Virus record (IMG/VR): IMGVR_UViG_2703719368_000014
DNA: 5,794 nt
Strand: one strand, 5' to 3'
Source of the DNA: a virus
Taxonomy: Duplodnaviria > Heunggongvirae > Uroviricota > Caudoviricetes
Shown piece after piece: positions 2,032-3,700 of the stretch (positions within the stretch are counted from its first letter, which is position 1; each line of letters opens with the position of its first letter). Under the pieces are notes generated by a model that was given only the letters and a program-made list of their open reading frames with translations, was not told where the DNA came from and searched no databases. Made by a program: the position numbers and the translations under genes.

Positions 2032-2196
2032 CTAGATTTTAAAGTATTTATCTTTTAGAGATGTAGATGTAAAACTTTTCGCCTTTGAAAATTTTTTGTC
2101 ATCAGAAGGGCTTATGAACTCATCTTTTTTGTAGGGAACCGCTAATGCTGCATCACGTCTGCGAGGCAGCTTGCTTACTTCCTCGCGCTTTTTCAT
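2032..2196 (-). CDS. Candidate small basic protein, 54 aa, distal gene of the kinase cassette (not in the supplied ORF track)
   Basis: ATG at 2196..2194 lies 2 nt after the kinase TGA stop (TGAtcATG). Translation MKKREEVSKLPRRRDAALAVPYKKDEFISPSDDKKFSKAKSFTSTSLKDKYFKI, with TAG at 2034..2032 abutting the terminator hairpin. Only a weak SD (AAGGA, 9-nt spacer). Confidence 0.35.
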   Translation of the reverse strand: MKKREEVSKLPRRRDAALAVPYKKDEFISPSDDKKFSKAKSFTSTSLKDKYFKI

Positions 2197-2198
2197 GA

Positions 2199-3245
2199 TC
2201 AGTTATCCTTTAATAACCTATACAGTTTTGTAGGGGTACATCCTGAGGATATTGTTAAGTTCGTAGCACGCCTTTTCCGCCCATCATCGTATAAACGAAA
2301 ACCAGTAGTAGACGAATTTTCTGCGTCAAAAACTATAGACAGTATAGCGTCCCCAGACTTTTTTTGCCATTCGCATGTGCCGTTAGTTGGTTTCGTCATC
2401 TGTAGACGCCAGTCAAGAACGCCATCACTTATAGCTGAGAGATCGTTTAGTACATCTAGTACGGATTGATATCTTTCATTTGGATCTACATGAATGCATT
2501 TGTTCACTATTGTTATTAATTTTTTATGTATATGGGGAGGATACTCTTTTAATGGATAGCAGCCATTAATTATCGACTCTCTGAGTTGTTCAATCGTGCT
2601 AAATGCAGATCTTTCTCTTTCAAAATTATCATGTCCAACACACATTCTATATATGGTTAATCCTGCCTGATATATGTCATATGTGAAATTATAATCATTT
2701 GTTGATAAAGAAAAATATTCCGGTGGCACATGAAAATGATATCCAAACTCAGGCGCAGCTCTCGATTCCTCATTGACTAACTGAGATAATCCAAAGTCAG
2801 ATAGCATGGCCTCATTTCTGTTTGATATCATAATGTTATTAGGTTTTATATCAAAATGCATAAGACCTTTTGAGTGTATATGATAAAGTCCACTTAAAAA
2901 TTGAATGGAATACCGTATTATCTCCCTGCTTGTAAGATTATTTTTTTTCATTAATTGGTTTAGCGAACCATTATGATAAAATGGCATGGCTATATAGATA
3001 TTGCTCTCACATTGAGCAGCATACTGAACTTGCACAATATTTGGATGTGCATGTTTATAGAGAAGCCTTGCTTCATTAAAGTAGTCGTCGTGGTTAGTGT
3101 TTTCTTTTTTTTCTATTTCTTTAATCACCAAGTCATGAGCTAGGTGTCTGTCATGAGCCAGATATACTTTTGAAAAACAACCCTGTTCTTCTAGATCACT
3201 AATCCATTCGAATTCTACATCAGCTCTTTTGTATGGAGTTAGCAT
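2199..3245 (-). CDS. Hanks-type (eukaryotic-like) Ser/Thr/Tyr protein kinase, 348 aa; candidate phage-exclusion effector
   Basis: Translation carries the canonical kinase motifs in order: beta3 Lys (LVIKEI), catalytic loop HFDIKPNN (HRDxKPxN type), SDFG (DFG), and VPPEY (APE-like). GGAGGT SD lies 6 nt upstream. Start overlaps the stop of the upstream ORF by 7 nt (ATGCTAA). Occupies the rexB-equivalent position. Resembles my memory of the Stk kinase class of Stx phage 933W, not verified. Confidence 0.85.
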   Translation of the reverse strand: MLTPYKRADVEFEWISDLEEQGCFSKVYLAHDRHLAHDLVIKEIEKKENTNHDDYFNEARLLYKHAHPNIVQVQYAAQCESNIYIAMPFYHNGSLNQLMKKNNLTSREIIRYSIQFLSGLYHIHSKGLMHFDIKPNNIMISNRNEAMLSDFGLSQLVNEESRAAPEFGYHFHVPPEYFSLSTNDYNFTYDIYQAGLTIYRMCVGHDNFERERSAFSTIEQLRESIINGCYPLKEYPPHIHKKLITIVNKCIHVDPNERYQSVLDVLNDLSAISDGVLDWRLQMTKPTNGTCEWQKKSGDAILSIVFDAENSSTTGFRLYDDGRKRRATNLTISSGCTPTKLYRLLKDN

Positions 3246-3700
3246 CCCCTTACCTCCGCAGATAGTGCAGCCAAAACAGCTTCATTTGTTTCAGTTGTAA
3301 AACCAGAATTATCGATTCCATTTATATTGCGGTGTGACTTCAATATTTCTTTATACTCGATCTCTGTTAGGTTCAATGATGATTTCATGCCAGATTTTCT
3401 AATAGTGTAATATTTTCTTACATCACTGCTTGAAAATGCTTCTTGAATAACAGCTTCTATATAAAGGCGGTCAATGCTAAGATTATCAGAGTTTGATTCA
3501 GTAACGCGTATGGCAGCTAATTCAACATTATATAAATTAAGAATGTCGAGGATGTTATTTCTCACATACTTTAATTTTTCTGGTGTGTCTAAGGTCGAAG
3601 GTATTTTAATAACATCAACACATTTGAGTGCAGACTCATTAGTGCAATATACAACAAAAGATGTAACTTTGGGCGCCGCTCTAACACCTAGTATTCTCAT
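3239..3700 (-). CDS. Hypothetical protein, 153 aa, translationally coupled upstream partner of the kinase
   Basis: ORF on the operon strand whose stop overlaps the kinase start. AGGA lies 7 nt upstream of ATG 3700. No confident family assignment; N-terminus MRILGVRAAPKVTSFVVY is beta-strand-like. Confidence 0.7.
   Translation of the reverse strand: MRILGVRAAPKVTSFVVYCTNESALKCVDVIKIPSTLDTPEKLKYVRNNILDILNLYNVELAAIRVTESNSDNLSIDRLYIEAVIQEAFSSSDVRKYYTIRKSGMKSSLNLTEIEYKEILKSHRNINGIDNSGFTTETNEAVLAALSAEVRGC

Follow-up and report, generated by a model that had tools for sequence, protein, structure and literature searches.

The Stk protein of phage 933W was described as a eukaryotic-like tyrosine kinase that aborts HK97 infection (in passages of PMC3564112) and was listed among the Abi systems (in a passage of PMC6356687). 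According to passages of PMC3681748, the kinase was activated by HK97 infection and was hardly active, if at all, without it, and the deletion of stk was found to leave the attaching-and-effacing lesion phenotype unaffected (PMC3681748). The same logic was described for lambda RexA-RexB, which are expressed in the lysogen and abort infection by a heterologous phage (in passages of PMC3564112). The staphylococcal Stk2 of Depardieu et al. (2016) was described as a Hanks-type kinase that is activated by a phage protein, with broad phosphorylation and abortive infection (in passages of PMC13276650). As far as the literature was searched, the published 933W system was found to name Stk alone, with the partner genes placed outside the described system, and no worked-out account was found of how Stk stays silent and senses HK97. 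The Stk system of 933W is said to have been described by Tyler and Friedman in 2004 and by Friedman et al. in 2011.

The DNA analysed here, called the window, is a stretch of 5,794 nucleotides from the IMG/VR virus record IMGVR_UViG_2703719368_000014. The window was found to be the immunity region of a 933W-type Stx prophage, with 99% DNA identity to phage 933W. In an earlier note on this DNA, the kinase block was proposed to be a prophage-expressed exclusion cassette, perhaps 933W Stk or a relative, and a homology search against 933W was suggested. The block was identified as the Stk locus of 933W itself. The protein identity to 933W was 100% for CI, L0083 (153 aa), Stk and L0081 (54 aa), with 348/348 residues of Stk the same as in NP_049482, and the DNA of the cassette was 100% identical to positions 9915-11605 of 933W. 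The differences between the window and 933W were all located outside the kinase cassette: a few SNPs, 3 residues of the DUF3024 protein and a stretch of about 440 bp that the window lacks in the ea10/ssb region. The gene order and the features were collinear with those annotated for 933W and Phi24B, and the cassette, its terminator and its position downstream of cI contained no difference from the 933W Stk locus. Because the locus is the 933W Stk locus, which was described in papers as aborting HK97 infection, the core finding is already known and, as posed in the earlier note, is a rediscovery of a known prophage defence that adds little by itself.

The cassette was found in the slot that RexA-RexB take in lambda, within the pRM transcript and between cI and oL, but without any sequence relationship to RexAB, so that only the position is held in common. 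No Rex model was present among the PADLOC matches for any ORF of the window, and the effector differs in type, being a protein kinase in the 933W cassette and a membrane ion channel in Rex. Stk2 resembles the present locus in the use of a Hanks-type kinase for abortive infection on a phage trigger, but it belongs to another kinase lineage, as the NCBIfam Stk1/PknB model scored 122 bits on 933W Stk against a cut-off of 450. Tyrosine phosphorylation was reported for 933W Stk. For Stk2, no RuvC-fold or small-protein partner is described. The PADLOC models of PD-T4-6 reached E 1e-37 at best on Stk, with matches confined to the kinase domain (residues 20-273) and without a curated cut-off, the top match overall being mad6; due to this kinase-domain match, annotators may label stk as PD-T4-6. 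PD-T4-6, a Ser/Thr kinase defence of the E. coli pangenome, is defined as a single gene, whereas the kinase of the 933W-type locus was always found with two partner genes (98/98 loci). The kinase domain of Stk was also similar to MAD6 of the MADS system (PADLOC mad6 7e-50, NCBIfam MAD6 2.5e-35), but the NCBIfam scores of Stk were far under the cut-offs, with 122 vs 460 bits for MAD6 and 45 vs 990 for BREX PglW. MAD6 and PglW have at least about double the length of Stk, and the multi-gene methylation systems of which they are part were absent at the Stk locus.

Layout of the immunity region

The oR region was found to contain the operators oR3 (4870-4884), oR2 (4902-4916) and oR1 (4926-4940), with coordinates from the 933W record and operator sequences read in the window, together with the maintenance promoter pRM, also called pM (4885..4912, minus strand; coordinates transferred from the annotated 933W record), the source of the leftward lysogenic transcript. 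The first gene of the operon was cI (4169..4876, minus strand), encoding a 235-aa repressor with HTH and S24 peptidase domains (Pfam HTH_3 and Peptidase_S24), followed by a gene at 3767..4108 on the minus strand for a 113-aa DUF3024 protein (Pfam DUF3024 2e-31; L0084 in 933W, vb_24B_13c in Phi24B). The three genes of the kinase cassette followed on the same strand. These were L0083 (Phi24B 'res'; 3239..3700, minus strand), which encodes the 153-aa RuvC-fold protein, stk (2199..3245, minus strand), which encodes the 348-aa Hanks-type protein kinase and presumed effector, and L0081 or ORF54 (2032..2196, minus strand; from the ORF list), which encodes the 54-aa basic protein.

The ORF sizes of 153, 348 and 54 aa, the 7-nt overlap of the first pair and the 2-nt gap before the third ORF, all given in the earlier note, were borne out by the ORF coordinates and the junction sequences. 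The overlap of L0083 and stk was read as ATGCTAA with GGAGG upstream, and the start of ORF54 was located 2 nt past the stk stop. The number of ORFs between cI and the terminator had to be corrected from three to four, as the DUF3024 gene had been overlooked. The DUF3024 protein matched the PADLOC candidate PDC-S43 at 2e-42, and its gene is treated here as a separate candidate defence gene that lies within the operon but outside the conserved kinase module. Its membership in the module was rejected, as it adjoined the module in 2/98 loci and differed in G+C content.

The intrinsic terminator that had been noticed at the end of the block was also found. It was located directly past the ORF54 stop (2012..2033, minus strand) as a G+C-rich hairpin, AGCCCGGCCTCAGCGCCGGGTT, followed by the T run TTCTTT, and it is annotated as tM, the end of the pRM transcript, in 933W and as tRM in Phi24B. 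Two oL-like operator half-palindromes were present at 1798-1812 and 1822-1836 (no strand assigned), each 3/15 positions off oR3, and bound the immunity region on its left side. They were placed between nutL (1709-1775, transferred from the 933W record) and tM, that is, leftward of the terminator, and the kinase block therefore lies between cI and oL, in the rexAB-like position that had been proposed. The G+C content was 35.5% in the cassette vs 45.2% in cI, 49.1% in N and 43.7% in the rest of the window, so that the AT-richness formerly judged by eye now stands as a computed value; the DUF3024 gene contained 45.3% G+C. Co-transcription of stk with cI was reported (in passages of PMC3564112), the expression of stk was found to be under the control of pRM (PMC3430580), and in lysogens of Phi24B expression was reported for 'res', which equals L0083, and for the DUF3024 gene (PMC4651098).

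The kinase and its two partner proteins

The Pfam model PF00069 (Pkinase) was found to match Stk with 158.8 bits against a cut-off of 31.7 (E 2e-46). The full set of kinase motifs named in the earlier note was present, namely VIKEI with K42, HFDIKPNN with D132, K134 and N137, SDFG with D150 and VPPEY with E176. The residues K42, E58, H130, D132, K134, N137, D150-F-G and P175-E176 were essentially invariant in 84 non-redundant relatives (G152 in 83/84), whereas the Gly-rich loop was degenerate in the 933W clade, with G22 alone retained. A bilobal kinase fold was predicted for Stk (AF2 pLDDT 86), with eukaryotic AMPK and CaMKII as the best Foldseek matches and PDK1 and Aurora also matched (E 1e-15 to 5e-17). 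The protein was divided into a kinase domain at about residues 10-270 and a C-terminal beta-and-helix domain at about residues 276-348. The Foldseek matches mostly covered the kinase domain; long AMPK alignments hint at a KA1-like or AMPK-CTD-like C-terminal domain.

An RNase H-like RuvC fold was found for L0083, with a strong fold match. No match to L0083 was found in Pfam and NCBIfam, the RuvC family included, or among the PADLOC models. The search with the L0083 profile against PDB sequences did not find RuvC and the hhalign comparison with RuvC gave weak local alignments; hence the link between L0083 and RuvC rests on the fold. Position 7 was occupied by Arg in 83/84 members and position 65 by Arg in 82/84, the remainder containing Lys, and the same Arg replacement pattern was also present in distant members. 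R7 and R65 appear to align with the catalytic D7 and E66 of RuvC (E. coli numbering), a mapping taken from weak sequence alignments and predicted secondary structure. Among the four RuvC carboxylates (E. coli D7, E66, D138 and D141), L0083 was found to keep the last acidic residue alone (E140), with position 137 variable. L0083 thus differs from the RuvC resolvase in the Arg residues at the D7 and E66 places, in the variable third acidic position and in being always paired with a kinase. Judged from these sequence comparisons, L0083 is probably a nuclease-dead RuvC-fold protein that is translationally coupled to the kinase.

In a library of 1.84 billion proteins, the L0083 family was represented by 443 clusters, and no fusion to a kinase was found among the best 150 of the 443 representatives. 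The flanking ORFs had been taken as uncharacterised, and no functional study of them was found in the literature; the 153-aa ORF, however, already carried a label in some public records, which is 'RuvC-like Holliday junction resolvase' in RefSeq and PHROGs and 'res' in Phi24B.

L0081 was confirmed as basic (pI 10.0) and was assigned to the family phrog_4063 (PHROG 4063), of unknown function, and no match was found in Pfam, PADLOC and NCBIfam. Its C-terminus contained a conserved Tyr or Phe motif. An ORF of 49-74 aa was found to begin at the kinase stop in 98/98 loci vs about 14% for other long ORFs used as control, and 84/86 of the small proteins from kinase loci contained a pI above 9. The iterative HMM search that was started from ORF54 stopped at 6 loci, and the small ORFs were clustered into 20 groups with weak profile-profile links between clusters (E 1e-3 to 5e-5). 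The position, length and charge of the small ORFs were conserved; because the HMM search stalled at 6 loci and the links among the 20 groups were weak, their homology across clades is claimed as probable only.

Distribution of the three-gene unit

The kinase-profile scan, with one genome per species, gave 263 stretches encoding a kinase relative, and the best 80 of these 263 loci were retrieved. A gene of the L0083 family was located directly upstream of the kinase on the same strand in 80/80 retrieved loci (HMM E 1e-33 to 1e-75). With prophage loci added, the set contained 98 loci from Proteobacteria, Bacteroidota, Ignavibacteria and one cyanobacterium, and the L0083-like gene was upstream of the kinase in 98/98; at most junctions the two genes overlapped or abutted. 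Since the retrieved loci are the best 80 of 263 kinase matches, the partners may be missing in more distant relatives. The distance matrices were found to co-vary, with r = 0.86 for the kinase and the RuvC-like protein and r = 0.82 for the kinase and the small protein. In all of the related loci examined, the kinase was accompanied by both unstudied flanking genes, the three forming a fixed unit, which is new with respect to the literature searched. No RuvC-plus-kinase defence family or system was found to match in Pfam, NCBIfam, PADLOC 2.0 and the searchable literature.

Genes of restriction-modification systems, Abi systems or mobile elements were frequent neighbours of the trio. It was present behind unrelated repressors in prophages of Klebsiella and Morganella, and neighbours elsewhere were an Abi_2 gene with an integrase, LlaJI-type restriction-modification and type I restriction-modification, followed at another locus by transposases, an AAA_21 ATPase and a deaminase. 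The separate acquisition of the block, which had been suggested from its apparent AT-richness, is supported by the low G+C content together with the same trio behind unrelated repressors in the Klebsiella and Morganella prophages. The cassette was found in 225/5426 complete E. coli genomes (about 4%), and 39/39 phage records with the cassette were Stx-converting or 933W-like.

Proposed working of the module and other readings

It is considered probable that the working unit of the 933W-type immunity region is a mobile three-gene abortive-infection module and not stk alone. In the lysogen, pRM would drive a single leftward transcript of cI, the DUF3024 gene, L0083, stk and L0081 that ends at tM, with stk nearly silent in uninfected lysogens. 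HK97 infection would turn Stk on, followed by tyrosine phosphorylation of cell proteins, and the infection would be aborted with loss of the cell. The module would consist of the putatively nuclease-dead RuvC-fold L0083 coupled to the kinase, the kinase itself and the small basic L0081. L0083 and L0081 may hold the kinase off, sense the trigger, or both, and the RuvC-fold L0083 would most likely be the one to act as sensor or adaptor, with the recombination proteins of the phage, or the branched DNA that they make, as its target. That the partners are required for exclusion, and the role of each, we infer. The kinase activity, the co-transcription with cI and the HK97 exclusion are taken from the literature, whereas the present analysis gave the identity of the locus, the conservation of the trio, the RuvC fold of L0083 and the replacement of its catalytic residues.

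The HK97 trigger of Stk is presumably gp41, the product of gene 41, and gp41 was reportedly named as the HK97 determinant by Friedman et al. in 2011. Nothing relevant on 'gp41' with Stk was found in the searchable literature. HK97 gene 41 was identified as erf, encoding an Erf-like recombinase or annealing protein, by elimination in AF069529, and the Erf-like recombinase of HK97 is therefore a possible Stk trigger. The record of 933W itself was found to contain Red exo/bet/gam and no Erf.

Several other readings of the locus were weighed. Stk could be a complete single-gene abortive-infection system, with L0083 and L0081 as unrelated accessory genes or with L0081 as no real gene. Purified recombinant Stk is said by Tyler and Friedman (2004) to autophosphorylate on its own, so the partners would not be needed for basal kinase activity, and HK97 exclusion may require no gene but stk; in addition, ORF54 matched only phrog_4063, with nothing in Pfam, PADLOC and NCBIfam. 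The exclusion factor named in the literature was also Stk only (PMC3681748, PMC3564112 and PMC6356687). The single-gene reading is nevertheless unlikely, as the partners were present in each of the 98 loci, which span several phyla, with junctions that overlap or abut, the background of trailing small ORFs was about 14%, the three proteins diverge together and the trio shifts as a unit among unrelated genomic contexts. A tentative reading, which is a specific version of the three-part module and does not contradict it, takes the kinase as a toxin and L0083 and/or L0081 as a labile or titratable antitoxin, with infection freeing the kinase. In many type II toxin-antitoxin operons, a small gene precedes a larger effector gene and is coupled to it in translation, a layout that is also present here, and the module was found in mobile and defence contexts, but Stk was reportedly expressed and purified alone without reported lethality. 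The near silence of Stk until infection (in passages of PMC3681748) fits the toxin-antitoxin arrangement, whereas L0083 contained no DNA-binding antitoxin fold but the complete RuvC fold, in which a charged pocket is conserved, and ligand or nucleic-acid binding is therefore favoured over simple neutralisation.

That L0083 is a working Holliday-junction resolvase for phage recombination or replication, with an incidental link to stk, would agree with its public labels and the strong RuvC fold match, but is very improbable in view of the near-invariant Arg at two of the four catalytic carboxylates and the missing Pfam RuvC match. Moreover, the gene is part of the lysogenic pRM operon, with expression reported in lysogens and not on induction (PMC4651098), and it was always paired with the kinase in the loci examined, non-phage islands included. 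The module might also serve mainly to tune the physiology of the lysogen, the induction of the prophage or virulence, by phosphorylating host proteins or CI, with HK97 exclusion as a side effect. The constitutive expression with cI (PMC3564112 in passages, and PMC3430580), the share of complete E. coli genomes with the cassette and its restriction among phage records to Stx-converting or 933W-like phages would suit such a role, which is rather improbable given the little or no Stk activity in uninfected cells and the stk deletion without effect on attaching-and-effacing lesions (in passages of PMC3681748), and given that unrelated bacteria without a Stx phage carry the same module next to genes for restriction-modification and Abi.

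The three-gene abortive-infection module was retained as the preferred reading. In a broader form, which was judged evenly poised between holding and failing, it would be a widespread and previously undescribed defence module with three components. These would be a Hanks-type kinase, a small basic protein that evolves fast and a RuvC-fold pseudo-nuclease whose former active site is lined by Arg, and the RuvC partner would couple the kinase to Erf-type annealing proteins or to the branched DNA that they produce.

Stk is one of few kinase-based abortive-infection systems. If true, a RuvC fold that has lost its catalytic function and is linked to a kinase would be a new kind of phage-defence sensor or adaptor, and the label 'Holliday junction resolvase' on hundreds of database entries would then need correcting. 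Since the module is present in about 4% of the complete E. coli genomes and, among phage records, in Stx-converting or 933W-like phages, it may affect which phages superinfect these strains or can be used against them.

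Identity of the locus and layout of the immunity region

Along its whole length, the window matched the immunity regions of 933W and about 30 other Stx-converting phages at 99% identity, with pRM (the maintenance promoter), oR1-3, the terminator tM/tRM and nutL annotated at matching places in the 933W and Phi24B records. The proteins CI, L0083, Stk and L0081 were each 100% identical to their 933W counterparts; for Stk this match proved right the earlier note's guess of 933W Stk or a relative. The DNA of the cassette was 100% identical to 933W 9915-11605. The locus is real and was correctly read in that note, and the 933W Stk abortive-infection system, of which it is the type example, has been described before. 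Of 5426 complete E. coli genomes, 225 contained the cassette; it was also present in 39 phage records, every one from a Stx-converting or 933W-like phage. Published work describes Stk as a eukaryotic-like tyrosine kinase that shares a transcript with cI and makes HK97 infection abort (PMC3564112); its activity is reported to be low in uninfected cells and to be switched on by HK97 (PMC3681748). Published work also counts Stk among the prophage Abi systems (PMC6356687), places stk expression under the control of pRM (PMC3430580) and reports expression in lysogens of Phi24B 'res' and vb_24B_13c (PMC4651098; PMC3342100), the counterparts of the 153-aa ORF and the DUF3024 ORF, respectively.

On the minus strand, cI (4169-4876) was found to be followed by a DUF3024 ORF of 113 aa (3767-4108; 933W L0084) and by the cassette (2032-3700), comprising L0083 (3239-3700, 153 aa), stk (2199-3245, 348 aa) and L0081 (2032-2196, 54 aa). 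L0083 and stk overlapped by 7 nt (ATGCTAA) with GGAGG upstream, L0081 started 2 nt past the stk stop, and its own stop codon was directly followed by a terminator (2033-2012, minus strand) containing a G+C-rich hairpin and then a T run. The 7-nt overlap, the 2-nt spacing and the terminator had been described in the earlier note and were confirmed, as was its impression that the block is AT-richer than cI and N: the G+C content was 35.5% in 2032-3700, against 45.2% in cI, 49.1% in N and 43.7% in the remaining window. The account of the interval between cI and oL held for the three ORFs but had overlooked the 113-aa ORF. Two operator-like 15-mers were present at 1798-1812 and 1822-1836, each unlike oR3 at 3 positions.

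The DUF3024 gene was ruled out as a member of the kinase module by its presence beside the module in 2 of 98 loci (the best 80 of 263 kinase-profile matches and prophage loci found separately) and by its G+C content, which was like that of cI and unlike that of the cassette. It is a separate insertion and probably an independent accessory or defence gene expressed in the lysogen. Its product differed from that of 933W at 3 residues and hit PDC-S43, one of PADLOC's candidate defence families, at 2e-42.

Compared with 933W, the window was without about 400 bp near 534/535 (about 440 bp across the whole window). Window 1-534 aligned to 933W locus positions 1501-2035 and window 535-1608 to 2436-3508, and because the alignment skips these 400 bp, most of the 933W ssb/ea10 gene is missing. 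Gene N (1196-1645, minus strand) was called mechanically as an ORF of 149 aa, the annotated 933W N starting from an internal ATG (127 aa), and its protein contained one substitution (D for E). The 156-aa ORF L0079 (667-1137, minus strand), located between N and the ea10/ssb region, had the same low G+C content as the kinase cassette (35.5%) and a sole match to PHROG 1636, of unknown function; it too appears to have been acquired separately, in this case within the pL operon. An IS629 or IS3-family insertion was found within the immunity region of Escherichia phage JLK-2012, Stx2a_F422 and E. coli UTAK-2; in UTAK-2 it falls inside the 1.7-kb match to the cassette, and some strains may therefore have an inactive module.

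Linkage of the kinase with its two partner genes

Homologues of L0083 in Klebsiella, Morganella and Terasakiella were found to have a kinase of about 345 aa directly downstream, followed in Klebsiella and Morganella by an ORF of 54-59 aa, with the trio placed behind repressors unrelated to 933W CI. More distant kinases had the same upstream partner: in Pseudomonas the neighbours were an Abi_2 gene and an integrase, in Elizabethkingia a LlaJI-type restriction-modification system, and in Acinetobacter the locus lay within a prophage tail region. When one genome per species was scanned with the kinase profile, 263 stretches encoding a relative were obtained; in each of the best 80 of these, an L0083-family gene (E 1e-33 to 1e-75) was found directly upstream of the kinase on the same strand. 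The 80 loci came from gamma-, beta- and alpha-proteobacteria, Bacteroidota, an Ignavibacteria genome and a cyanobacterium. Further neighbours sampled were a type I restriction-modification system, IS1595, IS21 and Tn7-type transposition genes, an AAA_21 ATPase, a DUF4365 protein and a deaminase.

Across the 98 loci, the L0083-kinase junctions were mostly overlapping or abutting, and an ORF of 49-74 aa was present at the kinase stop in all 98, compared with about 14% for control long ORFs. Of 86 distinct small proteins, 84 had a pI above 9. Between members of the trio, pairwise protein distances were found to co-vary (Mantel r 0.86 for the kinase and the RuvC-like L0083, 0.82 for the kinase and the small protein). 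The small proteins had a mean identity of 18% and fell into 20 clusters with weak profile links between them; because of this fast evolution and these weak links, their homology across all loci is probable, not proven. Judged from sequence, the flanking genes belong with the kinase as a conserved pair of unstudied partners, and a kinase acting alone is disfavoured by this linkage in 98/98 loci.

The kinase and the RuvC-fold protein

Stk matched Pfam Pkinase (E 2e-46) and was found to contain K42, E58, H130/D132/K134/N137, DFG, PPE, D190 and R258. These residues were essentially invariant across 84 non-redundant relatives (G152 in 83/84), and the intact catalytic motif set reported in the earlier note thus stood. 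The catalytic loop (HxDxKxxN) has the Ser/Thr form; specificity for tyrosine comes from published work (PMC3564112 and PMC3681748) and cannot be seen in the sequence. Stk scored far under the NCBIfam cut-offs for MAD6, PknB/Stk1 and PglW, and its PADLOC matches (mad6 and PD-T4-6 models) covered the kinase domain only. The AF2 model (pLDDT 86) showed, after the kinase domain, a confidently predicted C-terminal domain of four strands and a helix (about 276-348). The nearest Foldseek matches to the kinase domain were eukaryotic CAMK and AGC kinases at 18-24% identity, and the top matches for Stk were AMPK alpha chains aligned across about 380 columns, a hint that the C-terminus may form a KA1-like or AMPK-CTD-like regulatory domain. 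The C-terminal domain is encoded by 2199-2420 (minus strand), and its W279 and W293 were each retained in 82 of 84 relatives.

In L0083, R7 and R65 were found to align, weakly, to the catalytic D7 and E66 of E. coli RuvC, and the predicted strands agreed, with R7 ending strand 1 and R65 ending strand 4. Position 7 was Arg in 83 of 84 members and position 65 in 82 of 84, the others containing Lys. E68, R78, E82, E87 and E140 were invariant, the position of RuvC D138 was variable, and the pattern G-x-R ... [RK]-x-x-E ... E-G-V-x-Q-E ... R-E-A was kept in distant members. Among 1.84 billion clusters, 443 represented the family, each a stand-alone protein of about 150-175 aa, and no kinase fusion was found among the best 150 of the 443. 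We conclude that L0083 represents a distinct RuvC-fold family whose two-metal site has been lost. An active resolvase is disfavoured by the loss of catalytic residues, by expression in the lysogen and by the obligate pairing with the kinase, and 'Holliday junction resolvase', the name given in databases, probably misstates the function of this family.

Possible trigger and mode of action

The requirement of HK97 for exclusion by Stk was reportedly mapped to gp41 by Friedman et al. In the HK97 record (AF069529), the gene between 40 and 42 was found to be erf, encoding a P22 Erf-like single-strand annealing protein; in the original record (976-1581) its product is labelled 'Gp40', as is the preceding gene, and it is gene 41 by elimination. 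If this mapping is right, the trigger would be an Erf-family recombinase, and a recombination protein as trigger would suit a partner derived from a junction-binding enzyme. The recombination genes of 933W itself are exo/bet/gam, not Erf. The Klebsiella and Morganella prophages with the trio, a very small sample, contained RecE/RecT-type or unidentified recombination genes, not Erf; trio prophages without Erf would fit a module that spares its own phage.

A main effect on lysogen physiology is disfavoured, since the kinase is silent in uninfected cells and restriction-modification and Abi neighbours occur in bacteria without Stx phage. A toxin-antitoxin-like module is compatible with infection-triggered exclusion and forms a sub-model of it. 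Under the exclusion model, the most likely one, pRM would yield low amounts of all three proteins, with the kinase kept off in the lysogen before HK97 infection. Infection would lift this block via Erf or its DNA structures, the RuvC-fold protein and/or the small protein would relay the signal to the kinase, and broad phosphorylation would then halt cell and phage. With two conserved, unstudied partner genes and a disabled RuvC fold in hand, the mechanism by which the kinase is activated becomes directly testable.
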